A stretch of 64,000 nt of DNA. Origin: a candidate division WOR-3 bacterium. GTDB lineage: Bacteria; Hydrothermota; Hydrothermia; LBFQ01. The notes beneath the pieces are model-generated. The model searched no databases and was not told where the DNA came from. It was given only the letters and a program-made list of their open reading frames with translations. The stretch covers positions 1 to 64,000 of the forward strand of contig JALUCS010000132.1 in the NCBI GenBank assembly GCA_027050205.1, given 5' to 3'. Positions 8,957-63,196 of the stretch are shown here, piece by piece. Both the position numbers and the translations under genes were made by a program. Within the stretch, counting starts at the first letter, position 1, and each line of letters opens with the position of its first letter.

Positions 8957-9093
8957 AACGGTATTATAGACCTGACGGACCGAGGAGGGCGTCCGGATGA
9001 TTGTATTATAACTCCCCAAGGCTCGTCTCCTATCTCCTCGTTTTTTGCGCAAATAACGCAAGATCTGACGCACACCCTTATAATTCCGTCTCA

Positions 9094-11727
9094 ATGACCT
9101 GTATCCTTGCCAAAAGTACTGGGGTATCCCTCAAAAGGCACACCGAAGATGTGAAAGAAACCTTCATTTCCCTGAAGTCTCACTTCAAACGTACGGGCCG
9201 GAACCCACTTGAGGACTTTGAAGGTATTGAGGACGAGATCTTGAAGGCTATAGAGTATCACGACCTGGGTAAGGTACTCCCCTACTTCCAGATAAAGATC
9301 CTGAAGAATACGGGCTACGAGCCTTTTGACCTCACCCTGAACGTACCCCACTCCTTCGTCTCCCTCCTCTTTGTGCCGGGGGACGCCTCTGATGACGTTA
9401 GGGTAGCCGTTGCATATCACCACTGGAGGGAAAGGTTTGAGGAGATAATCGGTAAGGGTTTGAGCGCCCTGAACGAACTGGCAGAGAGACTGTTAGAAGA
9501 TGAAGATTTCAGGAACGCCCTCCTTGAAAACCTCAAAAACGAGATGGGGAAAGCCTACAGGTTGAACGAGGACATAACCCAATCGCTGGCCGGGGGTATG
9601 TCCGTCTCCGACCCCCGCATCGCACCGCCACCCTACGGCATCCTGTCCCAGATCTCCAACAGGGAGATAACGGATAGGAACAGGAGGGGCGTACTTATCC
9701 GCGGCCTACTCCAGAGGGCGGACCACTTCGCCTCTTGGGTTGAGGAGGAAGAGGAAGGGGTTTCCTTCTCCGATGTTGAGATACCGCCTAAGGACAGGAA
9801 TGAGGTACATAGGGCGATTAGGGAGAGGATAGGGGAGGGGGCGTGGCAGTTTGCAGAGTTGAAGGAAAGGGACGGGAACCTCATCCTCGTCGCCCCCACG
9901 GGCTATGGCAAAACGGAGTTCGCCTTCCTCTGGTCCGCCGGCTACAAGGCCATATACACCCTACCCTTGAGGGCTGCCGTGAATCAGATGTTCCAGAGGG
10001 CGGAGGACGTATTCGGGACAGGAAGAAGCGGCCTCCTCCACTCCGACGCCGACGTCTTCTACCTTGAGAGGGGCGAAGACTTCACATCCTACGCCCTCGC
10101 CCGCCAGCTAGCGCACCCGTTCCTGGTCTCAACGGGGGACCAGTTCTTCCCCTACGCCCTGAAACCGCCCACGTTTGAGAAGATATACGCCGTAATCTCC
10201 TACTCAAGGCTGACGGTTGATGAGGTGCAGGCCTACGACCCCAGAGCGGCGGCCATAATCGTCAAGTTCCTTGAGGACACCGTAAAGATGGGTGGCAACT
10301 TCCTCCTTATGACGGCTACCCTACCGGAGTTCGTAAGGGAGGAGGTTATAGACAGGGTCGGGGAGGGAAACGCCCCGATGATCAACATCTACGAGGATAA
10401 CGAGGAAGACTTCAGACGGATAAGGAAGCACAAGATAGAGCTTCGTTTCCTCGTGGCCGACGAGGACGATGGGGAGGGCAAGGGTAGAAGGAGGCGTAAA
10501 TCCGCCCCCGGATTTGACGGGGAAATTGAGGAGATCTTGAGGCACGCAAAGGAGGGTAAGAGGGTAATAGTGATAAGGAACACCGTCGCCTCCGCCCAGG
10601 AGACCTACGAAAGGTTGAAGGGCAAGGGGGTACCCGTCTATCTGCTCCACTCCAGATTCACCCTTGAGGACCGCAAGAGGAGGGAAGGGGAGGTGATGGA
10701 GGCCTTCGGGAACCCGAAGCCGAAGGACGAGAGCGAGGGCAAGATCCTCGTAGCCACGCAGGTGGTTGAGGCGTCCCTTGATATAGATGGGGACGTCCTG
10801 TTTACGGACCTCGCCCCGCTTGACGCCCTCGTCCAGAGGATGGGCAGGGTGATGCGGAGGTACTTTTACAGGGACGGCAAAGTGTGGGATAAGAGCAGTG
10901 GGGAGGAGATGGATATACCGGAGGAGGGTCTGGACCTGACCGCAGGGCCTAACGTCTTCGTATGGGTGTGGGTGAAAGAGAAGAAACTCGCCCACACATC
11001 GCCCTATCCGAAGGACCTGATGCTGTGGTCCCTCGCGTGGCTGTGGAGGTGGGGGGAGATAGAGATGCCTAAAGAGGGCATAACTCCGGACTTCGTACGG
11101 CGGAACTTCTACGAACCGGTGGGATACAAACCCAGAAAGGGCAACTACGATACGGACAACTTTGAGGGTAAGCTCTTAGGTACCTTGAAGCCAAAGAAAC
11201 GTAAGGACGACAAGGACGCCCTGTCCTTCCCCCTCTCCGAGTACGACAAGTACGCCATAGTCAAGGGCTTCTACGCCACCCTCAAGACTCTCGCCGGTGA
11301 TAGCAAGTACATCAGGACCTTCTACGACACCCTCGCAGTTTTGGACGCCGGATGGGTATCCGAGAGGAAGGCCGACGCCCAACGGGTGTTCAGGGAGATA
11401 TACGAGGTGAAGGCCGTACCGGAGAACCTCCTTGGCGCCTTCATAGACGCCGTTTTGGGGTTTGATTTCTCACAAAATTACACCCACTTTAAGCGGGACG
11501 TCCTGTCAAGGTACGTCGTAAGCGTTCCTATGTGGTGGGTTAGCATTGAAGACAGGGTCCTGAACTCCTTGAAGGAGGAGAGCCGTTTCTACGAACTTGA
11601 CAAGAAGGCGCGGGATAAACTCGGCCGTTGGCTGGCCGACGTCTTCGTAGTTGATGGCAACTACGTCCAAGAAAAGGGGTTAAAGCATCAAAAAAGGAGG
11701 TTAGAAGATGACGCTTTTATCATCTAA
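9094..11727 (+). CDS. cas3: CRISPR-associated HD nuclease/helicase Cas3
   Basis: HD domain (HT..V, YHDLGK, PHS, YHH, ADH.AS) plus SF2 motifs APTGYGKTE, DEVQ, MTAT, HSRF, ATQVVEASLDID, QRMGR; start moved to ATG 9094. Confidence 0.95.
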   Translation: MTCILAKSTGVSLKRHTEDVKETFISLKSHFKRTGRNPLEDFEGIEDEILKAIEYHDLGKVLPYFQIKILKNTGYEPFDLTLNVPHSFVSLLFVPGDASDDVRVAVAYHHWRERFEEIIGKGLSALNELAERLLEDEDFRNALLENLKNEMGKAYRLNEDITQSLAGGMSVSDPRIAPPPYGILSQISNREITDRNRRGVLIRGLLQRADHFASWVEEEEEGVSFSDVEIPPKDRNEVHRAIRERIGEGAWQFAELKERDGNLILVAPTGYGKTEFAFLWSAGYKAIYTLPLRAAVNQMFQRAEDVFGTGRSGLLHSDADVFYLERGEDFTSYALARQLAHPFLVSTGDQFFPYALKPPTFEKIYAVISYSRLTVDEVQAYDPRAAAIIVKFLEDTVKMGGNFLLMTATLPEFVREEVIDRVGEGNAPMINIYEDNEEDFRRIRKHKIELRFLVADEDDGEGKGRRRRKSAPGFDGEIEEILRHAKEGKRVIVIRNTVASAQETYERLKGKGVPVYLLHSRFTLEDRKRREGEVMEAFGNPKPKDESEGKILVATQVVEASLDIDGDVLFTDLAPLDALVQRMGRVMRRYFYRDGKVWDKSSGEEMDIPEEGLDLTAGPNVFVWVWVKEKKLAHTSPYPKDLMLWSLAWLWRWGEIEMPKEGITPDFVRRNFYEPVGYKPRKGNYDTDNFEGKLLGTLKPKKRKDDKDALSFPLSEYDKYAIVKGFYATLKTLAGDSKYIRTFYDTLAVLDAGWVSERKADAQRVFREIYEVKAVPENLLGAFIDAVLGFDFSQNYTHFKRDVLSRYVVSVPMWWVSIEDRVLNSLKEESRFYELDKKARDKLGRWLADVFVVDGNYVQEKGLKHQKRRLEDDAFII

Positions 11728-12797
11728 GCTGACGCTCTATCCTGCGAACTGGCTCTACAACGCCGGTGTTGTGGGGTTCTTGAGGGTGTTGGACGCCATG
11801 GGGGAGGACGTTGAGGGGATGTTGAGGGAGGATGGAGGGGTGGAGGTGGATAGGAACGTTTTTGATAAAATAGACGTCCAGAGCCTTTATTTCGGCGAAA
11901 ACAAGGTGGCCAGCATCGTAGGGAACAGCACCCTTTATAGGAACTACCTGCAGAAGAGATGGAAACCCGATTTTGAGGTGTTCGTGCGGAATCTAAAGCA
12001 CGTTCAGGAGAGGGGAAGGTGCGATATTTGCGGAAGGGGATTTTATATCCCGCAAGGAATATTGCAAAATTTAGAGAAATCTTCTCAAAATCTACAAAAG
12101 TTCATAAACGGCATAAGGAAGTTTGACGTGCGACTGAACAACATCCTTGCCCCGTCTTTGGGGGAATTTCCCAACGGCTTTTGGGATAACAAGAACAGCT
12201 CGGTAGTTTGCGATTTATGCGGATATTTGCTGATACATCACCATTTGGCACTGATTGATTTGCCCGGTAGATATGAGATTTTCATCAACGCCCCCTCGTT
12301 TAAGGTTATGTGGTACCTCAACAGGTACGCCCGCGAGATTTACGGGAGGGAGGAGGTTAAGAGAGTTCGGCATTTGTTCGGTATGTCCGTTATAAAAATA
12401 GCCCTGCGGTACAACCGTGAGTTGTCCCGTTGGACGGCGATGAACATAGAGGTGGTTATAAAGCACGGTAAGGAAGTGAGCTTCTTCTCCGTCCCATACA
12501 GGGTGGTTAAGCTCCTAACGGATAGGAAGGTAGCCTCCGTTTTGACGGAAATTAAGGAACTTTCCGTATTGGACAAAATTTTGGATCAAAAATTTGAGGA
12601 TTTGATAAATATAGGAGAAAAGATCTTGAGGTTGGGTTTTAAGGTGGTGAATGGGCAGAGGTTATCTAAAAACGAAAGGGAGTTTATCAACACCTTCATT
12701 AAACTTGATTCCAACAGGAGAGACCTTGTTGCCTTTGCACAGAAGATCTTCAAATTGCACGCCGCCATATCGGACGTTTTAAAAGAGGAGGTTGAAT

Positions 12798-12820
<23 letters not shown>
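11708..12820 (+). CDS. cas8b1: Type I-B large subunit Cas8b1/Cst1 (CXXC-CXXC), lacking the C-terminal helical domain
   Basis: LY.ANWLYNAG.VGF.R.L N-terminus, CDIC and CDLC, FPN.FW, IFINAPSF; position between cas3 and cas7. Confidence 0.85.
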
Positions 12821-15264
<2,444 letters not shown>

Positions 15265-15275
<11 letters not shown>

Positions 15276-16011
15276 GATCAGGTTCAAACCCACGGGAGGG
15301 CAACCGGAGAGCCTCCCGATTGATTACAGGGGGATCTTCATCTCCTTCGTAAAGTCGGCCCTCCTGCCCCGCTTCCCCCATATCTTTGAGAACCGCCTCG
15401 TGAAACCCTACACCTTCGCCGTCCTCTTCAACAGAGGGGTCAAGTTCAGCGGTAGGGAGATAACGGGGATAGGGCGGATGGACTTCCTCTTCTCCAGCGG
15501 CGACCCCGAAATCCTGACGGCTATGTTCAACTTCGCGATGGGCCTCAAACGGGGAATAGGATGGGATAAGATCCGCAAGGAGGAGATAAGGAGGTTCAGA
15601 CTGACAGAAGTCTCACCCGTATGGAGGGAGTACAGGGGGGAGGATACCTTCCGGATACTCTCGCCCGTGGTGGTGAACGACCCCGACAGGGACCCAAGGA
15701 ACCCCAGAGAGCATTACCTACTTCCGGGTGAGGAGGGATTCAGCCAAAGGCTACTTGAGACGACGAGGGAGAGGATGGAGAGGTTTCTGATGAAGGTCCC
15801 GAAGGGGGGGATGGAGGTTGAACCTGTGGGGAAGGTTAGGGAGGTTATGGTCAGGCACTACAGGGGATACGTCCGTGGGTTCATAGGGACGGTAAGGGTA
15901 AAGGCCTCCCCTGACGTCCTGAAGTTCATATACGACTACGGCCTCGGCGTAAGGACGGGACAGGGCTTCGGGATGTTGGAGGTTTGGGACACCTCCCCCT
16001 TCGTCGGTTGA
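15265..16011 (+). CDS. cas6: CRISPR endoribonuclease Cas6
   Basis: P.DYR..F.S..K, KPYTFAV, LSP.VV and the C-terminal G-rich loop GLG.RTGQGFGM. Confidence 0.93.
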
Positions 16012-45358: not shown

Positions 45359-46146
45359 TTCGTTCCGCTCGTATCCCTAAGGTTTCGCTCTATACGCTTC
45401 ACGACACCCACGTAGGGGGTCCACCAGAAGTAGGAGTTGAGGTTTATCCATAGGCCCATGTTGAGGACGTGGAGGGTCGTCCTGTACTGCACCTTTTGGG
45501 CGCAGAAGTCCTGGGTCCCCACGGTGTAGGTGGTGGTGTCCCTTACGATGGCCGTTATGCGGTACTCTATGGTGTCGGGAGTGCCACCGTCCCCTCCTAT
45601 GTAGTCGGCAGGGGGTAGAGTGTCCCAGTCCGTGGAGATGCTGTCCCCTTCCCTAAGGGGATACCAGGCAAAGGGCGACTCGGCCACTACGGTTATGGGG
45701 GTACCTCCCCCGATGGATGTGGTCTTTACGACCCTCATATAGAGGGTGTCGCCCCGGAGGAAGACGAAGGCCGTATCTTCCGCCCCGTCGTACGGGCCGC
45801 CGGAGTAGGAGGTCACCCAGGTGCTGTCGTTTATCATAGAGACGGTCTCGTCCCAAACGTTGCCCGTTGGGTTGAGGACACTGTCGGACGTGGAGTCTAA
45901 GGAGGTTCCCTCAAAGACCTGGTAGGACCACGAGGAACCGACGACCAGAGGAAAGTACCCGGCGCTCCCCGTGTCGGGACAGGAGACTCCCCCGACGTAG
46001 GAGGAATCAGAAGGGGAAGGTGTCCTGGAGGAGTCGGGGCAGAACTCGGAGTTAGGGTAATCCTCGCAGAAGTTCTTATCGCAACTCCCCGCTACGATAC
46101 CCCCAACGCCTACGACTACAAAAGTTAAAAGGAGACCTTTCCGCAT
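45319..46146 (-). CDS. Hypothetical lipoprotein
   Basis: Start moved to ATG 46146 (TATAAT upstream); MRK...AGSC lipobox; YFPL.VG..W.Y and WW.P.VG.VK motifs. Confidence 0.75.
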   Translation of the reverse strand: MRKGLLLTFVVVGVGGIVAGSCDKNFCEDYPNSEFCPDSSRTPSPSDSSYVGGVSCPDTGSAGYFPLVVGSSWSYQVFEGTSLDSTSDSVLNPTGNVWDETVSMINDSTWVTSYSGGPYDGAEDTAFVFLRGDTLYMRVVKTTSIGGGTPITVVAESPFAWYPLREGDSISTDWDTLPPADYIGGDGGTPDTIEYRITAIVRDTTTYTVGTQDFCAQKVQYRTTLHVLNMGLWINLNSYFWWTPYVGVVKRIERNLRDTSGTKWLQKDLRSFSVP

Positions 46147-46198
46147 TTCGGTCTGTATTATACTGGTGTAATGCGTCCGGGCGATAGGGGTTAAAAAG

Positions 46199-46271
46199 TG
46201 GGGCCGGCAGGACTCGAACCTGCAACCCACGGATTATGAGTCCGCTGCTCTGCCTGTTGAGCTACGGCCCC
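46199..46271 (-). tRNA. tRNA with CAT anticodon, most likely tRNA-Ile2 (lysidine)
   Basis: GGGGCCGTAGCTCAA...AGAGCAGCGGA-CTCATAA-TCCGT...GTTCGAGTCC; fully paired 1-72 (not initiator); loop resembles Ile2. Confidence 0.88.
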
Positions 46272-46975
46272 TAAGGGTATGTATTATAAGGCCGTTCAAT
46301 CTCCTATAGGGGCGGGGGACGGAGTCCTACCAACGTCTCTCCCCCTTAGAGGCGAAATTCCCAACCGTGGCTATGCGTCGGGGAAGGGATTACGGAGGCG
46401 TAATATCGTAAGGTATCTGGCGACATAACCGAGCCGTTGAAGTAGTACGGGGGTCTCGCATCCCGATCTTATCTAAAACGATGGAACTACACCCTCTACG
46501 GTTTCAAAAATTTATACGAAAATTTGCAAAAATTTTAGTTTCTTAAAGATTAATTAGTTCGAGAAAGAATCGCGTTTTATCTCAAAATTACGCTTATAGA
46601 GGAATACAATGAAATATTGTGTAATTTACATATTTAAGGACTAAAAGTAAAATTTTAAGAAATCAGAACTTATTCTTTTAATAAGCAAAAAATTGAACTT
46701 TAAGCTCACCGCACCCTCCATTAACGAATTTTGAACGACGTTAAGTGATACGACCTACCCTTCGGGAAATTTAGCATAAACGTCCATCCAGATTCACCGT
46801 AGGTACCTTCCAAAAACCGGAATTGAACTTCAAAGATTTAGTACCGGTGATGTAGGGAGTTTCACCCCGATGGCCCCTCTGATGTTGTCGCTCCATACGC
46901 TGAATACCCTTGCCCCCATTCGGTAATAAGCACTTTCCCGCTCCCTTTACGAGGGAATGACGCCGACGACCGAGA

Positions 46976-48821: not shown

Positions 48822-49511
48822 TTGGAGTTAGTGGTAGATGCCGGGAACTTCTCCGTAAAGATCGGTCTCTTCAAGGGAAACAGGCTCGTCCTACGCATAG
48901 CCTCATCCTACGCTCTACTACCCTCCGCCGCCCGGAGCCTTCCGGAGTACGACAGGGGTCTCGTCGTATCCGTCGCCTACGAGCTTGATGGCTACCTACT
49001 GCGACTGTTTCCGAAGACCCGCCCCCTCGTCCCCTCCCGTCTCCCCATCCCCACCCGCTACTCCCCAAGTACCCTCGGCCCCGACAGGCTCGCTGCCGCC
49101 TACCCCTTCATCCGCAGGAGGGAGAACGCCATCGTGGTGGTGTGCGGTTCGGCCATAACCGTAAACGTCGTAAAAGATGGTGTCTTTCTCGGTGGCCCCA
49201 TCTTACCATCCTTCCATAGGCTCCGCTCCGCCTACCTCTCACTCTCTATGATGGCCCGGAGGCTCCACCCCGACAGCCGAAGGGCGATAGAGGAAGGGGT
49301 TAGGTACGCCGTTCTGGGGGGCGTGAGGGAGGTGATCAGGGACGTAGAGAGGAGGTTCGGGATAAGGAGGAAGTACCTGACGGGAGGGTGCGTCCACGAG
49401 CTCAAGGTGGGGGGGAAGGTCCTGCCCGACCTCGTCCTCTTCGGGGGGCGTATGCTCCTTGAGGAGTTCTGGGATCTTGGGTTATCCTCTCCTCCCTCTC
49501 ACCCTTTATAG
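48822..49511 (+). CDS. coaX: Type III pantothenate kinase
   Basis: VD.GN...K, SV, LG.DR, G.A.T, GG.I.P, LTGG, LVL.G; start moved to TTG 48822 (TATAAT 6 nt upstream). Confidence 0.82.
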   Translation: MELVVDAGNFSVKIGLFKGNRLVLRIASSYALLPSAARSLPEYDRGLVVSVAYELDGYLLRLFPKTRPLVPSRLPIPTRYSPSTLGPDRLAAAYPFIRRRENAIVVVCGSAITVNVVKDGVFLGGPILPSFHRLRSAYLSLSMMARRLHPDSRRAIEEGVRYAVLGGVREVIRDVERRFGIRRKYLTGGCVHELKVGGKVLPDLVLFGGRMLLEEFWDLGLSSPPSHPL

Positions 49512-49569
49512 GACAGTAAACAAAACAAACAAAAAAATGGGATTAGTGGCTAAATTCTTAAAGAGGAGG

Positions 49570-52500
49570 TTATAAGTTTTCCATTTCATCTTTATCTATA
49601 CTTTCAAAATTTTTTAACAAAGAGGTTATTTGTATATCAACAGGTCCATATTCTTTTCTGTCAGTTCCCTCTGATATAAAAAACAGATACTCTTTATCGG
49701 TATTTATAATATGCTTAGGATAAACAAGTACATCAGAATGGTAATTTATTTCCACATCTTTGGATATATCTTCAAATATATCGGAAATTTTACTTTTACC
49801 TTTTGGTGATATATTCATACTTTTTATTACATATTCTATAATGTCAAATAACCCCAATTTATCCCTATCTTCAATATTTGGTTTTAAAATTATAAGATAA
49901 TCTCTGGCCCTACTAACCGCAACGTTGCGTAATCTATTATCATAGAAATGAGACCTTAAACCAGGTTTTTCCCTGGGCGGATTCAATACAAATATTATTA
50001 TATCCCGTTCATCCCCTTGGAATCTATGAACGGTTGAAACAGTAGTTTTACTTAGATCTAAAGCTTTAGCCAGAGCATACATAATATTAACTTGCATCCT
50101 ATATGGAGAAATTATACCGATTCTCTTATCGGGATACTTTCTTTCAATGTTTCTAGCCAGCTCAACAGCAAATATTGCTGAAGGTATATGATAAGGAGAA
50201 GATCCGGGACCCTTATGAATCTTGTTTATAATATCAGAATTTATGTCAAATTCTATGATTGTTATAGGATTAATATAAAGTAATACATTTCGTAATTTTA
50301 CCTCCAGCGATTTTGGCATTTCATCCTCTCTACCGTGTCTAAGAAGACCACCGTACATATATTTACTATAAATTTCACCTATATGCTTTATGCTTCTATA
50401 CTGAGTTTTTAGGATATTTATATCAAATCTATGATCAATGATATTAGGATTTTCATGCCTAATGTAGTATATTAAAAAGTTTTTATTACATTTTGCAACA
50501 TTCTTGTGTGGTTTATTTTTTATCTCCTTTAATTTATCCATATTAAGAGCAAGAATTGTATAAATATTCTCCGTTGAATACCCTTTAGCTTTTGGTACAT
50601 CAAAAGTAGGAGTTTTTCCTACAGGCGTAAGCTGATTAGGATCCCCAGCAATTAGGAACTTGATCCTTTTATTTTTCACACTAGCGGATAAAAGCACAAA
50701 AGTAATAAATGGAAGAGGAATCATTGAAGCCTCATCTACAACGATCATATCCCAATCGTACTCTTTTATGTCCCTACTGCCTATGCTATCATATATATAT
50801 CTGTGTATAGTCATAGAAACCGCATAGGGGGGGGTTGGTAAAGGTTTGCCCTTAATTAGTATCTTATCTTCAGGTATAGAACTTTCAAGAGAATGTGGAA
50901 ATCTATAAATCCGTACATTCTTCTTAAGATCTATTGTTCTATTGACAACAACATCCGCAGATTTATTTGTAGGTGTTAAAATTAAGATGCTTTTATGGGT
51001 ACCTTTCTCTAACTCCTCCGATATCTTACACGCTATGTAAGTAGTTTTTCCCGTTGCTGGAGGACCCCATACAAAATCTATGTCCATTCCTTCCAAAAGT
51101 TCACTAACTTTTTTGTTCTTTAAGGGTATCAAAGCGCTTAATGAATTAACTATTATAGTATTAAAATGTGATGTTATAGTATATTCCAATCTTATCCAAA
51201 CTCTTAACTTAATAGGTTTTTTGGGAATAATGGTGTTATTTTCTATCTTTACTGATATACCATTTATTTCTCCTATATTTGAAGGAACGATGCTATTTTT
51301 AATTTTGATTTTTCCTTTGTGAAGAACAAGATTATATTTCTGTCCTTTCACTATGAGTTTATCTCTTAATTCTCCATCTTTCCATCCTTCCGATTTTAGC
51401 AGAAGTTTTAATCCGTACTCTGCATCGTATCCTATATTTTCTATACCGGACGCATGGGAGTACAGGGGTTTATTTGCTTCTATAAAAACGTCCAAACTCT
51501 TTACATCCCAGAACTCCACACTCGCTTTGGGAGGAATAGGAATTGATATTCTCTCTTCTGACTCATAAAATATTTCAGATTGAACTAACTTCTTTTTATA
51601 TGGTTGAACATAAGTCTCAACATATTCCCATAGCATCATGTAAATAAGCCACTCAACAGTTAAATCTTTACTATTCTTATCCAAACTTAGATCTTTTACT
51701 TTCTCTTTTATAAACTTAACGACTTTATATTTATTATCAGTTAATATTTTAATTTTACCTTCTTTTAGTATTTTCAAAATTATATTATCTGTTAAAATAT
51801 TATTTTCTATTGCAAATTTAAACCAATTTTGTTCATTTTCAAGCTTCACTTTATCTAAGTTTAAATCCTTATCTTTAATAGCTGCTTCTATATCTTTAAA
51901 GCATACAATTTTCCTATCCTTATTTCTAATAATACACTTATTAAGCGGTATATTGTACTCTTCTACTCCTCCTATGCGCCTTAGAGCTATATTATTTTTA
52001 AATATATGAATAATATCTCCCAATTTCTTGTCATGTGCATATTTCTTCAAAATTTCAGCTTTCCAGCTATTATCAAGTTCAGCTTCAACAGGGGAGAATT
52101 CATTACCGTATTTGTTTAATAAATATTCCCAAATATTTTTCCCTATTTTTCCTTCAAAAATACTGATATTTTCATATAAATTTAATTCCTTGTCATCTTT
52201 GTTTATTTTTACTTCTTTACTTATACAATTGCTTATCTCCTTATTTATTCCCAGCTCCTTGTCGGATAGTTTAAGTTTTATACTCCCGTTATACACATAC
52301 ACCCTTTCTTTCTCTGTTAATATATTATGGGGTATGTTAGGAGCATCGGGAGCGGCTGGTTTTATAACCTCACTAAGCGATCTTATCATATATTTTCCCC
52401 GTAAATTTTCTAATTTTTCTTCAAATATAATATCATCTTCTCCGGCAAATATTAGATCAATTTTACTGCCTTTACCCAATTTATTAAACAGTTCGTTTAA

Positions 52501-52764
52501 CAAACATAGCTCATTTAATGAATATTTGCTTAAATCTTCAAAGGTAAAGAATATGCTTTTTCTTTTAATATTTTTAAATCTAAGGACTATACCATCATCT
52601 TGTAAATTTTGAACCACAGGGAAAATTACTGTGTCTTTCTCTATCTCCTTGTAAGCCTCTTTTAATAAATTAACAATTGTTTTAGATGTTTCCCCTCTTT
52701 TATAAATAAAACTTTTATTATCTAACCATCTTATTGTTCTATCCCATACATTATCCCTATTCAT
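49570..52764 (-). CDS. UPF1/DNA2-like superfamily 1 helicase with a long uncharacterised N-terminus
   Basis: GPPATGKTT, PTNKSAD, VVDEASM, GDPNQL.P, QYRS, IISPY..Q, TVH.FQG.ERD, NVAVSRA. Confidence 0.9.
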   Translation of the reverse strand: MNRDNVWDRTIRWLDNKSFIYKRGETSKTIVNLLKEAYKEIEKDTVIFPVVQNLQDDGIVLRFKNIKRKSIFFTFEDLSKYSLNELCLLNELFNKLGKGSKIDLIFAGEDDIIFEEKLENLRGKYMIRSLSEVIKPAAPDAPNIPHNILTEKERVYVYNGSIKLKLSDKELGINKEISNCISKEVKINKDDKELNLYENISIFEGKIGKNIWEYLLNKYGNEFSPVEAELDNSWKAEILKKYAHDKKLGDIIHIFKNNIALRRIGGVEEYNIPLNKCIIRNKDRKIVCFKDIEAAIKDKDLNLDKVKLENEQNWFKFAIENNILTDNIILKILKEGKIKILTDNKYKVVKFIKEKVKDLSLDKNSKDLTVEWLIYMMLWEYVETYVQPYKKKLVQSEIFYESEERISIPIPPKASVEFWDVKSLDVFIEANKPLYSHASGIENIGYDAEYGLKLLLKSEGWKDGELRDKLIVKGQKYNLVLHKGKIKIKNSIVPSNIGEINGISVKIENNTIIPKKPIKLRVWIRLEYTITSHFNTIIVNSLSALIPLKNKKVSELLEGMDIDFVWGPPATGKTTYIACKISEELEKGTHKSILILTPTNKSADVVVNRTIDLKKNVRIYRFPHSLESSIPEDKILIKGKPLPTPPYAVSMTIHRYIYDSIGSRDIKEYDWDMIVVDEASMIPLPFITFVLLSASVKNKRIKFLIAGDPNQLTPVGKTPTFDVPKAKGYSTENIYTILALNMDKLKEIKNKPHKNVAKCNKNFLIYYIRHENPNIIDHRFDINILKTQYRSIKHIGEIYSKYMYGGLLRHGREDEMPKSLEVKLRNVLLYINPITIIEFDINSDIINKIHKGPGSSPYHIPSAIFAVELARNIERKYPDKRIGIISPYRMQVNIMYALAKALDLSKTTVSTVHRFQGDERDIIIFVLNPPREKPGLRSHFYDNRLRNVAVSRARDYLIILKPNIEDRDKLGLFDIIEYVIKSMNISPKGKSKISDIFEDISKDVEINYHSDVLVYPKHIINTDKEYLFFISEGTDRKEYGPVDIQITSLLKNFESIDKDEMENL

Positions 52765-55700
52765 TCTGCCCCCCTCCTTTTCTGTTATCGTATACTATTT
52801 TCCTTAATTTAATAGCCCCGCTTCCATCATTATAAGGAGTTAATATGCCAAATCCTTCCAGAAATTCCTCAAATTCCTCTGTGTCATCCGAAACCCTTAA
52901 CCACTGGGGAATTTTCTCGCTTTCTAACGCAAGATAGTCGGGATATATATATTTACTGTAATCCTCTGCACAGACTGAACACTTACTACTATGAACTTCT
53001 TCCAATCCCTCCAATTTCTTAAGTTCCTTAAATTTCCAAGCATCACTTCCCCATTTTCTAAATACAAATTCTATAAATTCTTTTTTACACCCATCATCAT
53101 TTTTGACAGGTGTATGATATATCTTATATTTATCCTTATATGGTTCTGCCAATATAAAATCGTAAAATTCATCACTATTCTTTTTGACGTACTCCACAAC
53201 CTTATCCCACTTTTCACCATTCCCCCACTCTGATTTCTTTATAACGTAATCAAGATATGTGCATTCAGAGAATTTTGTATCTTCTAAAGCATAAATTTGC
53301 GCGATACCTCTGTTTCCCACTATTAGTGCCTTAATTTTATTCCTCTTATATTTATTATCGTTATATTTGTGATATAGCCACAGAAGTGCCAGCAATGTGT
53401 CGGTTGTTTTTTGGAATCTTTTGTCTTCAACTAATATTTCATATACTCTTTCCAAATCATTCAAAATTTCCTCGGAAAATATACGCTCCATTATTTCTTT
53501 GCTTCTGCTCTCGTTTCCGAAGATCTTCATAGAAAGCCCTCTGCTTATCTCTCCTGCTTCCTTGGTTTTATCTTTGAACACCTTTGACCAATCTATACTC
53601 TCTGGATAGTCCAAACGCACCTCGTAAGGTTTCCATTCAGATATATCCTCTCCGTTGATCCTAATACTCAAACGAAAATCAGAATAATATTTATTCTCAA
53701 AATATACTTTCAGTATTTCCTTTTCAAAAAACCCTATTTGCAAATCACCATTTATATAATTTATGTTAAGCTGCTTAATTTTCTTAAAGATTTTACCAAA
53801 TTCATCCCCATATCCAGTCGGCATGGAATGATTTACTATAAAAACCCCATACTCTTTTAACTTATTAATGGTTTCCGGAGAGAATCCTTCATAAAATACT
53901 ATAATATTGTTATTCACCTTATTTTTTAATTTATAATGCTTAATGCTATTATCCTCAATTAGAGGCTCAAATACCCATTTATTAAAGAAGTTTTGATCTT
54001 TTATATCTTTTATGAATTCAAGGAAAGTCTTGAGATCATCAAGAGTTAGTCTTGCATTTTCCTCGGGAAAGAATGCACTTTCGGGTAGGGAAGATGGAAG
54101 ACGTGAATCTAATTTTAAAATTTTATTGCCGGGATATTTCTTAATAAATTTCAAAACATCTTCATGAACAACTGTTTTGATTAATTTTCCTATTACCCTT
54201 ATTCTGTCCTCTGTTAGATTGCCATTATAGAAGATTCGGTCCTTGTCTACATATTTCTCATTATGAGTATAAACCTCGTTTATCTCATTAAGCATAACTT
54301 CCTTTACTTTCTTCAACTCCTCTGAAGATAACCCAGACTTCATAGCCTCCCATTCATCTTTATTGATAACAAATTTTTTAAGCCAGCCATATTCATCAAG
54401 GTTTATACCGGATGGTAAGAGGTCGTAAGGTAGGAGTTCAGATAGAGGACGAAGTTCATTATTGGAATTTTTAAATACCTTTAATAATTTTAGGTCTTCC
54501 TTTCTGATTTTATAACTATACCACCAGTTCTCGTCACCCACAAATTTGTTCAATATATTATCCAATATTTCTACCTTCTTATGTGTAGAAAGACTATTGC
54601 TATATTTGTTGACAATATCCACAATATTAGCATCTTTACCTTTTTCAATTTCAATTTTAAATTTAAAATTTCTTTTATGTTTGTGAAGCTTGTCAAAAAT
54701 TACCGTTAAAACTTCTACATAATCAGCTAATTTTAAGTTGTTTATATTCATTGATTTAATATACTCGTACTCTTCCTTATTATACACAATAATAATTTCT
54801 CTTTCCTTTGCTTCTTTTATAGTGTAAAAAGTTTCACTATATTTAACAATTTTCAGTTCCTCTATCCATTCAACACCTATATCTAAATTAGCAACATGCT
54901 TAACAATATCTAAATATTGATCGGAGTTTCTTATTATCCATTCATTAAACTTAGTTACATTTTTCCTAATAATATCGTTTAAACCCTTACTTTCTATAAT
55001 TTTTTCCTTCCTCTCGGCGAATAGGAGCCAATCAGGATTATCTAGCAAACCTCCTTCATAGTCTTTAGGGAACCAATGGTTACCTGGAAAGAAATCTTCC
55101 AGATAAAGATTTTTTAATTCCAGATTATTTTTCTTGAAAACATTTTTATAACTTACTATTTGTATTTTACCTTCTTTATCTTTGACCGGTATATTATTCT
55201 TTAAAAAATCCCAAAGCTCCTCCTTAAAATATTCCCAAATCTCTTTTTTCTCATCTGTCTCCATCTTGGGCTTTGATATTATGATGGAATGAAATACTTT
55301 ATGGTATTGTTCAACATTCATCCTTTTTCTTTCCTCCAAATATTCTTTTATTTTTCGTAAGGCTTTTTTAACTTCTTCTCTATTAGCAAGTTTGGTTCTG
55401 TGAGCCTGAACATCGAATCTTCTGGAATTTATCAAGAAATTGAACCCATATCTCTCATCATCTATAGGAAGAGGATTATAAATATTAGGATAATCAGTAA
55501 ATTTATTCCTTTTCCTTGATATACGTACAATAAATTCAGAATTCGGAATATGTATAATATTAGATCTGTCTTTGGTTTTCTTATATTCTCCCTTTTTCTT
55601 ACCATTTTCCCCCCATAATATTTCCTCTAAATTGGTTAAAAACTCCAACAAACCACTTAACGTTTCTAAACGACTTTTAACAGCATTGTAATTTTCTGTA

Positions 55701-56638
55701 CGAAAAGGGACTATAAATAATGATCCTGTATCCCATTGCATAATTTCTTCTTTGAACCATAAAGGTATATTTTCTATAATTTTAATATCCTCTTCTGTAA
55801 AACACTCTTTTTTCCCAAATTCCGGATGGAGGCTTATTTTCTCCTTAAATCCCGCCGGAAATGTAGTGATTAAAAACTTAAATAATACAGGATATTCCCA
55901 GCTATCCTCTCTACTTACCCCTTCATTTGCCCAGTTTAACTTTAGAAACTCATTTACTTCGTTTCTGTTTCCCCATGAGAAAATAATAGGACCATAGAGT
56001 CTTTCTATTAAACCTTCCCAATCTTCAGATGTTTTCATAACAAGTCTATGTATCAGTTTAAATCCAATTCCATATTTCCCTATATATTCCTCACTGTCAT
56101 GCTTAGAGCTTTCAGAAATCATAAGAATGGAGTAAATATCCTTTGGAGTGAATTTATACCCATTATTTGCAAATATAAACCATTTATCATCTTTTTTGAT
56201 ATCGTCAACATAAAATATCATTTTCCTTGCCTTACTATCTTCCGCATTTTGTATGAATTCATATATGGCTTGCTTGTCCTCCGCCATTTTAATTAATTTG
56301 TTTAAATGTTGCTTTAAATCTTCCTTTGCCTCTTTAAAATCACTGCTAGCTGTTCTTTCATATATAGTTTTGTAATAGGAAACTTTACCCTCTTCTTCTT
56401 GACCCATTAGCAAATTATAATCAATCTTTTCAAATCTTATATCACTCTTTTCACGAATTTTCTTTATATCATAATTTTTTAAGCTTTTCTTTACTATCTC
56501 TTCACCCAGCAAATGAATATCCGCTCCTTCAAAAATTGTTCCTTTATAATTAATTTTACCCCCTTTAACACCCCGATCACCCAATTTCTTCCTATCAACA
56601 ACCCGCTCCCTTATAAACCTGGTACTCACAACCTTCAT
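52757..56638 (-). CDS. Large protein with sacsin/NOV-like GHKL ATPase N-terminal domain
   Basis: YEFIQNAEDS, NNG..F...D..SI.....S.K, IGKYGIGFK, F.INS..F....R motifs. Confidence 0.82.
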   Translation of the reverse strand: MKVVSTRFIRERVVDRKKLGDRGVKGGKINYKGTIFEGADIHLLGEEIVKKSLKNYDIKKIREKSDIRFEKIDYNLLMGQEEEGKVSYYKTIYERTASSDFKEAKEDLKQHLNKLIKMAEDKQAIYEFIQNAEDSKARKMIFYVDDIKKDDKWFIFANNGYKFTPKDIYSILMISESSKHDSEEYIGKYGIGFKLIHRLVMKTSEDWEGLIERLYGPIIFSWGNRNEVNEFLKLNWANEGVSREDSWEYPVLFKFLITTFPAGFKEKISLHPEFGKKECFTEEDIKIIENIPLWFKEEIMQWDTGSLFIVPFRTENYNAVKSRLETLSGLLEFLTNLEEILWGENGKKKGEYKKTKDRSNIIHIPNSEFIVRISRKRNKFTDYPNIYNPLPIDDERYGFNFLINSRRFDVQAHRTKLANREEVKKALRKIKEYLEERKRMNVEQYHKVFHSIIISKPKMETDEKKEIWEYFKEELWDFLKNNIPVKDKEGKIQIVSYKNVFKKNNLELKNLYLEDFFPGNHWFPKDYEGGLLDNPDWLLFAERKEKIIESKGLNDIIRKNVTKFNEWIIRNSDQYLDIVKHVANLDIGVEWIEELKIVKYSETFYTIKEAKEREIIIVYNKEEYEYIKSMNINNLKLADYVEVLTVIFDKLHKHKRNFKFKIEIEKGKDANIVDIVNKYSNSLSTHKKVEILDNILNKFVGDENWWYSYKIRKEDLKLLKVFKNSNNELRPLSELLPYDLLPSGINLDEYGWLKKFVINKDEWEAMKSGLSSEELKKVKEVMLNEINEVYTHNEKYVDKDRIFYNGNLTEDRIRVIGKLIKTVVHEDVLKFIKKYPGNKILKLDSRLPSSLPESAFFPEENARLTLDDLKTFLEFIKDIKDQNFFNKWVFEPLIEDNSIKHYKLKNKVNNNIIVFYEGFSPETINKLKEYGVFIVNHSMPTGYGDEFGKIFKKIKQLNINYINGDLQIGFFEKEILKVYFENKYYSDFRLSIRINGEDISEWKPYEVRLDYPESIDWSKVFKDKTKEAGEISRGLSMKIFGNESRSKEIMERIFSEEILNDLERVYEILVEDKRFQKTTDTLLALLWLYHKYNDNKYKRNKIKALIVGNRGIAQIYALEDTKFSECTYLDYVIKKSEWGNGEKWDKVVEYVKKNSDEFYDFILAEPYKDKYKIYHTPVKNDDGCKKEFIEFVFRKWGSDAWKFKELKKLEGLEEVHSSKCSVCAEDYSKYIYPDYLALESEKIPQWLRVSDDTEEFEEFLEGFGILTPYNDGSGAIKLRKIVYDNRKGGGQNE

Positions 56639-56707
56639 AAGACGAGAGAGGATTATATAGCAGTAAACCTATCCGTAGTGGAACCTCGCCTATATACCCC
56701 TCAGCCC

Positions 56708-58345
56708 TCACATCTCTCCCTCTATCTCATCAAGAAGCTTGAGGCGGTCTATCGTATCCCTCTCCTCCACCTTCGGGGCCAGTTGCCACGCGTAGTAAAG
56801 GGGTAAGGCCTTCAGTCCGAACCACCTCTTTATGAGCATGGCCGCTATCGGGGCGGCGGCGGAGCTGCCGTGTCCGGCGTTCTCAACCACGACCGCCACG
56901 GCGAAGGTGGGGTCATCGTAGGGGGCGAATGCGATGAATAGGGAGTGGTCATCCCCGTGGGGGTTCTGGGCAGTACCGGTCTTGCCCCCGTACCTGAAGC
57001 CGGGGATACGGGAGAGGGCGGCCGTACCCTCCTCCACCACCCCCAACATCCCCTCCTTAACCTTCTCGTAGGCCCAATCCGGGGCATCAACCTTAAGCGT
57101 CTCCGGGCGGTCAAGGGGGGAGAACCTCGGAAGTACCACCCACCCACCGTTCCCTATCAGGCCAGCCTCCACAGCTAAAAAGGCCGGTGTGACCAGTATC
57201 TCCCCCTGACCGATGGCGTAGTTGAGGACCGAACCGTAGTACTTGACCTTTTTGGGGAAGCGGGAGGGTACCTCCTCCGGCAGGGGGGTGAGCTTTCGGC
57301 CAAAGAGACCGGTTTCCCATACGGCCCTTATGAAACGTTTGGGGCCGAAGCGGGAGCCAACGTTGTAGAAGAAGACGTTACAGGACCAGGTTATGGCCTT
57401 CTTAAGCCTCGTGTAGCCGTGGACGGACCAACAGCGGAACTTCCTCCTCCCGAGATACACGTACCCGCGGCACCCAACACCGAAGGTGGTGTCTATGACC
57501 CCGTACTTCAGGGCGAGGAGGGCGACCAAGGGTTTGAAGGTGGAGCCGGGAGGGTAGAGGCCGGCTACGGCACGGTTGAGTAGGGGGGAGTCCTCCGGGG
57601 AGGCGATGGTATCGTAAGGCCCCGGTTTGGAATACACCAGATAGACCTCCCCCGTCTTCGGGTTGAAGGCGAAGGCAGCTCCCCTGCGGTACGGAGCCAT
57701 CAGGGAGTCTACGAGGTGGTAGAGGTCAAGGTCAAGGTAGGTGTGCAGGTCCCTGGGGTTGTGGTATATCAGGACCTTAGGCTCGTCTATGAGGTTGCCG
57801 TAGGCATCCACCTTGAGGAGGACGTGTCCCAACTCCCCCTTGAGGTAGTCGTTGTAAAGCTTCTCAAGGCCAAAGAGACCCTCACCGTCGCTCGTGGTCC
57901 TTCCGACGGTGTGAAAGCACTCCTTGCATACGAGGCTGTGCCTCACGGTGGGGACGACCTCTATGCTCCTGAAGAAGGGCCTGTGCTTCATAACCTCGTA
58001 GATCTCGTCTTGGGTCAGACCCTTTATCTCGCTGAAGCCGAGGTACCGGTACCTCTTCACCTTAAAGTCGTGGCCTAAGAGTATCCGGAGACCCCGTAGA
58101 TCCGCCTCCTCCACCTCCCTACGGAGGTTGAACTGGATCACCTTCCACCTGACCCTCGGTAGGGACAGCGGCCTCCCCTTCCTGTCCAGAACGGCCCCCC
58201 GCACTATCCCTAAGGGTATCTTGCGGGTGTAGTTGGCAACGTCCTTACCCTTGAGCGATGGGTCCGAGACCCCCTTAAAGTAGGCACCCCCTATCAAGAT
58301 GGGGATCACCAAGGATAGGGCGAGAGGGAGGAGGAGTCTCTTCAA
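56708..58345 (-). CDS. mrdA: Class B penicillin-binding protein (PBP2-like transpeptidase)
   Basis: RG...DR.G, G..GLEK.Y...L.G..G, NRA..G.YPPGSTFK, SCN, IGQG, KTGTAQ. Confidence 0.85.
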   Translation of the reverse strand: MKRLLLPLALSLVIPILIGGAYFKGVSDPSLKGKDVANYTRKIPLGIVRGAVLDRKGRPLSLPRVRWKVIQFNLRREVEEADLRGLRILLGHDFKVKRYRYLGFSEIKGLTQDEIYEVMKHRPFFRSIEVVPTVRHSLVCKECFHTVGRTTSDGEGLFGLEKLYNDYLKGELGHVLLKVDAYGNLIDEPKVLIYHNPRDLHTYLDLDLYHLVDSLMAPYRRGAAFAFNPKTGEVYLVYSKPGPYDTIASPEDSPLLNRAVAGLYPPGSTFKPLVALLALKYGVIDTTFGVGCRGYVYLGRRKFRCWSVHGYTRLKKAITWSCNVFFYNVGSRFGPKRFIRAVWETGLFGRKLTPLPEEVPSRFPKKVKYYGSVLNYAIGQGEILVTPAFLAVEAGLIGNGGWVVLPRFSPLDRPETLKVDAPDWAYEKVKEGMLGVVEEGTAALSRIPGFRYGGKTGTAQNPHGDDHSLFIAFAPYDDPTFAVAVVVENAGHGSSAAAPIAAMLIKRWFGLKALPLYYAWQLAPKVEERDTIDRLKLLDEIEGEM

Positions 58346-61510: not shown

Positions 61511-61538
61511 AAGGGAGGGGGCTTAGGCCCCCTCCCTT
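61511..61538. terminator. Hairpin between convergent genes (probable bidirectional terminator)
   Basis: Perfect 12-bp stem AAGGGAGGGGGC-TTAG-GCCCCCTCCCTT. Confidence 0.75.
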
Positions 61539-62098
61539 CACCTTATTACCCCCTCAACCTTTACCTTAAGGCCCTTGAGGATACAGGATTCTACCTCCCC
61601 ATTGCCAGCGGCGACGGTGTGCAATACGTACTTGCCGTCCTTCAGACACCATACCTCTATCACCTTCCCGCGTGGCAGGACTATCCAGTACTCCCTTACG
61701 CCGTACTTCTCGTAGAGCTTAAACTTTTCGTACCTGTCCTTTACGTAGCTGCCCGGTGAAACGATCTCAACAGCCAAGTCCGGAGGGCCGAAGATACGGT
61801 CTTTGACTATTCCAAGCCTCTCTTTGGAGACGAAGAGGATATCCGGCTGTATTACCGTTGACTCGGAAAGGACAACATCTACGGGCGATATGAGGACCTC
61901 TCCTAATTTAGCCTTTTCTACAAAGTCGTATATAATCTTATAAAGCTTCCCAAGTATCCTCTGATGCTCCGTCGTAGGTGAGGGCATCTCTTCCAACCTC
62001 CCGTTTATGACTTCGTACCGTTTGTCGTCTTCAAGGCGGAGGTAGTCCTCGTAGATCCAGACCTTCCCCTCCGGCCTATCAATCTCCCCCATCTTCAA
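61538..62098 (-). CDS. Uma2 (DUF820) family PD-(D/E)xK endonuclease
   Basis: YE.ING, PSP...HQ, QPD, PDL.VEIVSP, K...Y.KYGV.EYWIV.P. Confidence 0.93.
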   Translation of the reverse strand: MKMGEIDRPEGKVWIYEDYLRLEDDKRYEVINGRLEEMPSPTTEHQRILGKLYKIIYDFVEKAKLGEVLISPVDVVLSESTVIQPDILFVSKERLGIVKDRIFGPPDLAVEIVSPGSYVKDRYEKFKLYEKYGVREYWIVLPRGKVIEVWCLKDGKYVLHTVAAGNGEVESCILKGLKVKVEGVIR

Positions 62099-63118
62099 CC
62101 TCCTTCAGTAGGTCCTTGAGCCGGAACTTCACCCCCTCCAGAAGGTCCACCTCTTCATCTTCACCGAAGACCTTGAGACTCCCTTCGGCGACCACAACCA
62201 CCTCCCTGTCCTCTGGAAACACCCAAATCTGCCTCTTCACCCCCCACCTCCTGTAGTCCTCCATCTTCTCAAGTATGTAGGGTAGGCTGTCGGAGGGTGA
62301 GACTATCTCAACTATCAGGTCTGGCGGTACCTCTATGGCCCCTCCCTTCAGTTTCCACCTATCTTTGGATATCGCCACCACGTCCGCCCCTCGTAGAGTC
62401 AGGGGAGAACGGGAGAGGAGCAACGCCACCTCACCACTAAGGACGATGTAAGGTCCTTTAGATTTGAGTAGCAATCCGGTTATAAGGGCTTCCATAAAAC
62501 CGTGTGTATCCCCCGTAGGCATCTTTCTGACCTCCTTGCCTCTTATAACTTCCGAGACCTCCTCCGGTATCCTACCGCTTAGATAGTCCTCGTAGGTCCA
62601 AACTTTCTCCCTCTCCAGTACGGCTCCCCTCATTTCAAAACCTCCTCAACCTTTACCTTGAGGCCATTCAGGACGCAGGACTCAACCTCCCCTTCCTCAA
62701 CGGCGAGGCTGTGCAGGACGTACTTGCCGCCCTTCAAACACCATACCTCTATCACCTTTTCGCGCGGCAGGACTATCCAGTACTCCCTTACGCCGTACTT
62801 CTCGTAGAGCCTAAACTTTTCATACCTGTCCTTTACGTAGCTGCCCGGTGAAACGATCTCCACAGCCAAGTCCGGAGGGCCGAAGATACGGTCTTTGACT
62901 ATTCCAAGCCTCTCTTTGGAGACGAAGAGGATATCCGGCTGTATTACCGTTGACTCGGAAAGGACAACATCCACGGGCGATATGAGGACCTCTCCTAATT
63001 TAGCCTTTTCTACAAAGTCGTCCATAATCTTATAAAACTTCCCAAGTATCCTCTGATGCTCCGTCGTAGGTGAGGGCATCTCTTCCAACCTCCCGTTTAT
63101 GACTTCGTACCGTTTGTC
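61628..63118. repeat. Direct repeat of about 400 bp (about 61628-62026 and 62720-63118)
   Basis: Long identical blocks such as GGACTATCCAGTACTCCCTTACGCCGTACTTCTCGTAGAGC in both copies, with scattered substitutions. Confidence 0.9.
62079..62633 (-). CDS. Uma2 (DUF820) family endonuclease, divergent
   Basis: P....H, R.ADV, PDL.VEIVSPSD, K..DY...GV...WV.P. Confidence 0.88.
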   Translation of the reverse strand: MRGAVLEREKVWTYEDYLSGRIPEEVSEVIRGKEVRKMPTGDTHGFMEALITGLLLKSKGPYIVLSGEVALLLSRSPLTLRGADVVAISKDRWKLKGGAIEVPPDLIVEIVSPSDSLPYILEKMEDYRRWGVKRQIWVFPEDREVVVVAEGSLKVFGEDEEVDLLEGVKFRLKDLLKEVEDGGD

Positions 63119-63196
63119 ATCTGTGAGCTTTAAATAGTCCTCGTATGTCCAAACCTTCACCTTCGCCCTCTCAAGGGTAAATTTACTCATCTTCAA
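62630..63196 (-). CDS. Uma2 (DUF820) family endonuclease, near-identical to 61538-62098
   Basis: Same motifs; core almost identical at DNA level with a 1092-bp offset. Confidence 0.93.
   Translation of the reverse strand: MKMSKFTLERAKVKVWTYEDYLKLTDDKRYEVINGRLEEMPSPTTEHQRILGKFYKIMDDFVEKAKLGEVLISPVDVVLSESTVIQPDILFVSKERLGIVKDRIFGPPDLAVEIVSPGSYVKDRYEKFRLYEKYGVREYWIVLPREKVIEVWCLKGGKYVLHSLAVEEGEVESCVLNGLKVKVEEVLK

Follow-up and report, generated by a model that had tools for sequence, protein, structure and literature searches.

The 64,000-nucleotide stretch of DNA under study (the window; contig JALUCS010000132.1 of a candidate division WOR-3 bacterium) contains two very large adjoining genes on its reverse strand, here called gene 1 and gene 2. 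An earlier note on this DNA took them for a two-component defence module, nuclease-less or with a cryptic effector, matching no named system. We find that the pair is a real, conserved split variant of the catalogued Tiamat-like class. The two open reading frames (ORFs) share an overlap of 8 nt (ATGAATAG) and lie in different frames, and the ATG of gene 2 is preceded at a distance of 8 nt by AGGAGG. The GC content of the pair block is 31.0%, against 57.0% for the genome. The sizes, overlap, AGGAGG and AT-richness first described for the genes are thus all borne out. The pair is flanked by a type III pantothenate kinase gene (coaX) and a PBP2/MrdA-like gene. These flanks are as previously read, but a clean insertion between them is not supported, as coaX and the PBP2 gene lie on separate contigs with other neighbours in all five congeners tested. 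Gene order is almost wholly scrambled among genomes of the source genus (loci L188-L197), and therefore an empty insertion site was not found. The short direct repeat at the edges of the block (Table 1) may have arisen by chance.

Table 1. Features of the two-gene locus, in coordinates of the window.
Feature	Position	Strand	Evidence
Gene 1, 1293 aa: N-terminal part of Tiamat-like protein (GHKL ATPase and core)	52757..56638	-	PADLOC TmtA, Pfam SACS, HATPase_c_3
GHKL ATPase and probable transducer region, gene 1 ~aa 100-500	55139..56341	-	Motif positions; invariant columns in 34 homologues
Tiamat middle region, putative sensor, gene 1 aa 500-1283	52790..55138	-	Profile match; ends at conserved motif
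Fission point	52757..52778	-	AGGAGG at 52778-52773 and 8-nt stop/start overlap (sequence)
Gene 2, 1064 aa: Tiamat core tail and Upf1-like SF1B helicase	49570..52764	-	Domain matches, fold comparison, profile searches, helicase tree
Tiamat core continuation and predicted docking site on gene 1, gene 2 aa 1-215	52120..52764	-	hhalign, HMM, complex model
Likely stalk helices and beta-barrel (1B) domain, gene 2 ~aa 340-550	51115..51747	-	Structure model; weak colinear match to fused homologues
SF1 helicase core, all motifs intact, gene 2 aa 560-962	49879..51087	-	Pfam AAA_11/12/19; Foldseek; motifs
Family-specific C-terminal extension, gene 2 aa 965-1047	49624..49872	-	69-row alignment
AT-rich block	49500..56690		Edges carry 8-bp direct repeat at 49514 and 56661

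The family of gene 1 is given by the PADLOC profile TmtA (PDLC03970). This matches aa 51-1287 with E = 6.7e-80 and 268 bits, running from position 4 to 1224 of its 1552 and spanning 96% of the protein; PADLOC results here are profile matches alone, with the system rules not applied. The earlier note had made its claim of novelty turn on the absence of a match to a named system, and this is such a match. Pfam SACS (8e-14) and HATPase_c_3 also match gene 1, and NF047352 scores above its cut-off. The GHKL motifs are intact, as had been read (E127/N131/D134, N158-G160, G187-K194 and G305). By sequence, E127 is likely the equivalent of the catalytic E44 of Tiamat. R414 is invariant in 34 homologues, and we infer that it is the transducer arginine described in Tiamat (bioRxiv 10.64898/2026.09.30.754977). 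The following ~900 aa, in which no domain had been recognised, are assignable as Tiamat core by the TmtA profile. The 38 database relatives of gene 1 are mostly of 1400-1750 aa; several carry a NOV_C/DUF3883 nuclease, one carries DarT and one a helicase.

Gene 2 begins where this core breaks off. Its first ~550 aa had likewise gone unrecognised, and are assignable as the tail of the Tiamat core followed by accessory domains of the helicase. Using hhalign, aa 8-85 align with the corresponding region of 61 single-chain homologues (probability 84%, P = 7e-6), and in an earlier profile-profile run the N-terminus reached a score of 35.9, with 14 controls all scoring 25.6 or less. A profile of the first 205 residues searched against 2299 sequences gave L034, L039, L028 and L060 as top matches (E from 1.8e-4 to 8e-3), each sitting just past the motif with which gene 1 ends. 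Residues 215-305 weakly resemble an internal repeat of a beta module and are absent from two relatives. The structure model (mean pLDDT 77) places a helix, an all-beta domain and a further helix ahead of the RecA folds, and Foldseek matches the model to Dna2, IGHMBP2, Upf1 and Sen1 with E about 1e-20. Because of this pattern and these matches, the stalk and 1B barrel are most likely formed by aa 340-550; an atlas match of this segment to PF21138 at 0.83 is a lead only. The helicase motifs are complete, as previously stated (Walker A at 567-574, DEASM at 677, QYRS at 788, motif V at 911 and motif VI at 947), and PADLOC MkoA matches the helicase part only (2.7e-31). In the C-terminal extension H1009, Y1026, D1043 and column 1013 are near-invariant, and an atlas search with it gave nothing at 0.9 or above.

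Elsewhere the counterparts of gene 1 and gene 2 make up a single protein. Eighty metagenome loci were fetched using helicase motifs only; the GHKL domain lies in the same ORF in 61, the ORF is cut by the contig start in nine and the remaining 10 are of other kinds. A fetch of 80 genome loci by ATPase motifs returned 21 ATPase-helicase fusions, of which 20 measure 2232-2319 aa, compared with 2357 aa for the pair. On a fusion profile of 2290 positions, gene 1 aligns at 54-1373 and the helicase of gene 2 at 1812-2268, in the same order. The end motif of gene 1 is present in 116 of 147 proteins examined, and 110 of the 116 run on for at least 275 residues. In 23 proteins of 2223-2310 aa it is followed by 904-975 residues; the shortest full relatives of gene 2 have 912 and 917 aa. 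A stop within 10 residues of the motif occurs in four of the 116 only, namely gene 1, its counterparts in genomes G003 and G007, and a near copy of that from G007. Since the genes are halves of a protein that is single-chain elsewhere, the pair is a split variant of a catalogued family and not a new system.

The same split recurs. The source genome (G000), G003 and G007 each have the pair, every time at another site and with low GC content, and in all three intact copies the TmtA match ends at position 1221-1224 of 1552. AGGAGG is present at the equivalent point in G003, where the ORFs overlap by 4 nt, and in G007, where they are separated by a 1-nt gap. Thus homologous pairs and, among the fetched loci, fusions do occur elsewhere, as the earlier note had proposed to check. 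In a helicase tree of 44 rows the six split-type sequences form a clade (support 99) that is sister to the fused L092 (98) and lies within a fused group (100), apart from the PIN-type helicases that neighbour nuclease-less Tiamats. The pair arose by fission, not by recruiting two independent components, and it was acquired horizontally and has been conserved. Of the two-component module first proposed there remains a conserved horizontal pair, most likely for defence; the independence of its components does not stand. The fused protein nearest to gene 2 in the tree (L092:7851-13574) has an extra C-terminal S1 RNA-binding domain, a hint of an RNA substrate.

The two products likely re-form a complex. 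Modelled as a complex, residues 987-1293 of gene 1 and residues 1-225 of gene 2 scored 0.60, against 0.00 for the best control, with runs sharing at least 50% of contacts and a partner pLDDT of 40-44. Of 157 solved pairs, 18 fall in that score band, as do the only two mismatches that passed among 215 scored; it is graded as weak support, and docking of the halves of a split gene is likely a priori.

How does the pair relate to the systems already described? Tiamat of B. cereus combines an ATPase with an ssDNase, and its E44A substitution is cited as abolishing defence (bioRxiv 10.64898/2026.09.30.754977); the same three-part anatomy appears in bioRxiv 10.64898/2026.09.30.755639. Gene 1 matches TmtA nearly end to end, including the GHKL ATPase with the catalytic Glu equivalent and the middle region. 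The pair differs in being two genes with a helicase effector, and it is not a Tiamat in the strict sense because the C-terminal DUF3883/NOV_C nuclease is absent. In the first preprint, Type III-B comprises Tiamat-like proteins with a Upf1-like helicase instead of the nuclease, and Type II-B comprises those that have no nuclease and lie beside a Upf1-PIN gene. With Type III-B the pair shares a GHKL ATPase and Tiamat core with a high TmtA score (268 bits for gene 1, and 360-660 for fused relatives on this profile). It also shares the order of the parts and a Upf1-like SF1 helicase standing where the PD-(D/E)xK nuclease would be. The difference is that a single protein there is here two coupled genes divided inside the core, by a stop codon and change of frame in three genomes; in the main text of that preprint the word 'split' does not occur, and 'fission' stands in a reference title only. 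Type II-B likewise has two genes, an ATPase without nuclease and an adjacent Upf1-like helicase. Gene 2, however, bears a piece of the Tiamat core, does not group with those neighbour helicases in the tree and has no PIN domain in Pfam, whereas PIN_4 is found in the neighbour helicase of L026. Mokosh types I and II, as defined in 10.1101/2022.05.11.491447, share the Upf1-like helicase, but in the pair the partner is a GHKL ATPase; no PLD nuclease or Ser/Thr kinase family is matched in gene 1 or gene 2, and the HKD pattern is absent from gene 2. As judged from sequence, then, the pair fits Type III-B save for the single chain, but does not qualify as strict Tiamat, Type II-B or Mokosh. The pair is very probably a split Tiamat-like ATPase-helicase of Type III-B architecture, an assignment made by architecture.

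Neither protein of the pair matches a nuclease or methylase family in Pfam, NCBIfam or PADLOC, in agreement with the earlier note, and PF13020 (DUF3883/NOV_C), which relatives do show, is found in neither at E values up to 1. The system might nevertheless be self-sufficient if a cryptic nuclease or toxin domain lay in the C-terminal extension of gene 2, in its aa 200-340 or in the middle of gene 1. The His, Tyr and Asp of the extension are near-invariant across fused and split forms, and divergent nucleases detected by HHpred alone are reported in bioRxiv 10.64898/2026.09.30.754977. Yet gene 1 stops at TmtA position 1224, ahead of the nuclease part of the profile, and gene 2 aa 1-215 are homologous to the region preceding the nuclease in true Tiamats. 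In addition, no set of the HNH-, HKD- and PD-(D/E)xK-like patterns seen in gene 1 is conserved across the three split copies. We regard a cryptic effector as quite improbable.

Many fused relatives have a second gene close by. PDC-S68 is a RecD-like helicase and a single-gene PADLOC candidate, whose C-terminus is PD-(D/E)xK-like by motif reading, with no Pfam nuclease match. It is present in 29 of 82 fused loci, in 27 of the 57 with at least 3 kb of upstream DNA, and in one other fetched locus; the fraction is rough, since loci are redundant and flanks short. Of 90 genes neighbouring fused relatives, 34 match PADLOC at 1e-20 or better and 20 of these match PDC-S68; restriction, CBASS-like, Gabija-like and Abi genes are also neighbours. 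Fused ATPase-Upf1 genes from two subfamilies of Tiamat have PDC-S68 as a neighbour (for example L056:4174-14765, L115:852-9773 and L164:871-9413), and the fused gene and PDC-S68 are probably a two-gene system. PDC candidates come from 10.1101/2024.01.29.577857, the main text of which does not name S68, and no such partnership was found in the main text of bioRxiv 10.64898/2026.09.30.754977. A full-length PDC-S68 match is absent from G000, G003, G007, G008 and G009, genomes that are 89-94% complete. The pair could on this showing be the remnant of a fused ATPase-helicase with PDC-S68, its effector gene lost and the system being broken up, and only a shortened helicase is left in G009. Such decay sits poorly with ORFs and catalytic motifs that are intact in three genomes at just 23-40% identity, each split at the same point and with its own ribosome-binding site there. 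Moreover, PDC-S68 was not seen in the fetched DNA of 53 of the 82 fused loci, where flanks are often short. We consider an incomplete or decaying remnant improbable.

Other Tiamat-like proteins carry a C-terminal DarT ADP-ribosyltransferase instead of the nuclease (L044:7860-14521, L054:513-7174, L075:2251-8622, P0033, L039:7800-14248 and L041:7836-15735); downstream of those in L039, L041 and L044 lies a gene for a macro-domain (DarG-like) protein. Those of two cyanobacteria are encoded by two overlapping ORFs, an independent fission at another point. DarT, ADP-ribosyl and macro were not found in the main text of bioRxiv 10.64898/2026.09.30.754977. The partnership of PDC-S68 with the fused form, and DarT as a further interchangeable effector, may outweigh the split itself in importance.

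We think it likely that the pair acts against phage. The model put forward for Tiamat of B. cereus suggests, by analogy, a mechanism that is more tentative and that we put somewhat short of an even chance. In it, gene 1 would dimerise as an ATP-gated clamp with a variable middle that would capture a protein or nucleic acid of the phage. Docked on gene 1 by its N-terminal core fragment, gene 2 would be loaded or activated when phage is sensed. It would then travel 5'-to-3' on ssDNA or RNA, unwinding and stripping intermediates of phage replication or transcription. Cutting would be supplied in trans, by PDC-S68 near many fused relatives and by a host nuclease for the split pair. The clamp, the sensing and the 5'-to-3' polarity proposed for the pair are modelled on GHL ATPases, on SF1B helicases and on the Tiamat model of the preprint. 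A bolder proposal, rather unlikely in our estimate, is immunity by two motors with no nuclease at all. Here an Hsp90-type clamp would hold the Upf1-like subunit and release or load it on sensing phage, so that unwinding, protein stripping or ATP drain would suffice, and the split would mark a module boundary for exchange of effectors (nuclease, helicase or DarT). As the split pair lacks the usual helicase-nuclease neighbour, it may offer a clean case in which to ask whether defence by a GHKL clamp and helicase is possible when they have no nuclease of their own. The whole account (a split Type III-B pair, likely re-formed as a complex and likely anti-phage through helicase loading) we hold to be moderately probable.

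A number of observations weigh against this account. The reciprocal single-profile HMM search for the gene 2 N-terminus was not significant (E = 0.48), the similarity of gene 2 aa 90-550 to the fusions is weak, and global profile alignment of gene 2 to them failed. A profile of aa 305-560 gave no significant fused homologue, the match being weak though colinear. The best matches of gene 1 are mostly non-helicase Tiamats. An ATPase tree, in which branches are long, does not group gene 1 with the large clade of fused proteins and does not settle where it belongs; the case for fission from a fused ancestor therefore depends on colinearity and the helicase tree. In G009, which is 90% complete, the helicase is without its first ~300 residues and the genome has no TmtA match. 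As to function, no experimental test of Type III-B proteins was found in bioRxiv 10.64898/2026.09.30.754977, which places ~14% of Tiamat-like proteins in non-defence contexts. The immediate neighbours of the pair at all three sites are housekeeping and not defence genes. Together with the Upf1/Sen1/IGHMBP2-like fold of gene 2, these last points would suit a nucleic-acid motor that serves RNA surveillance, R-loop processing or repair as accessory DNA. However, the presence of the pair is very patchy, fused relatives lie among the defence genes listed above, and NOV_C nuclease, DarT or helicase interchange at the same position within the subfamily. A role outside defence thus seems very improbable.

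How widespread is the split form? The helicase-bearing Tiamat-like class as a whole is widespread. The split form is associated with thermophiles, and consists of two proteins of ~1100-1300 aa rather than one of 2300 aa. The gene-2-type helicase occurs in four of 272 genomes of the phylum, all within one family. Close homologues are labelled 'candidate division WOR-3' by NCBI, and that of G003 'Thermotogota'. In G008 the start of gene 1 is at a contig end. The helicase of G009 is a stand-alone protein of 679 aa without the Tiamat-core fragment (L099:3134-4035 and L100:3-1157); the helicase can thus persist alone. Among viral-collection loci, five of seven (L202-L206) encode a fused ATPase-helicase, in stop-to-stop frames of 1589-1755 aa, which is possibly cargo of mobile elements.

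The best-matching run is a hydrothermal vent metagenome that may be where this DNA came from. In it the contig that spans both genes (49050-57674) has a depth of ~100, compared with ~240-280 for the flanking contigs, which hints that the block is carried by a fraction of the population only. Pieces of both genes, 90-97% alike, are also present in runs from two other studies. One contig there bridges the junction of the genes, and no indel is present at the junction among the rows listed for it.

Further genes lie in the window and its counterparts. Type I-B CRISPR-Cas genes (cas3, cas8b, cas7, cas5 and cas6) occupy 9001-16011, ~34 kb from the pair. Three small tandem genes are found at 61538-63196, of which the first matches Pfam Uma2, and the first and third match PADLOC PDC-S03. 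In the congener G004 an OLD/GajA-like ATPase-TOPRIM gene directly follows the PBP2 gene (L193:3205-4635). A second, short AT-rich dip is present at 46000-46900, upstream of the 3' end of lepA.

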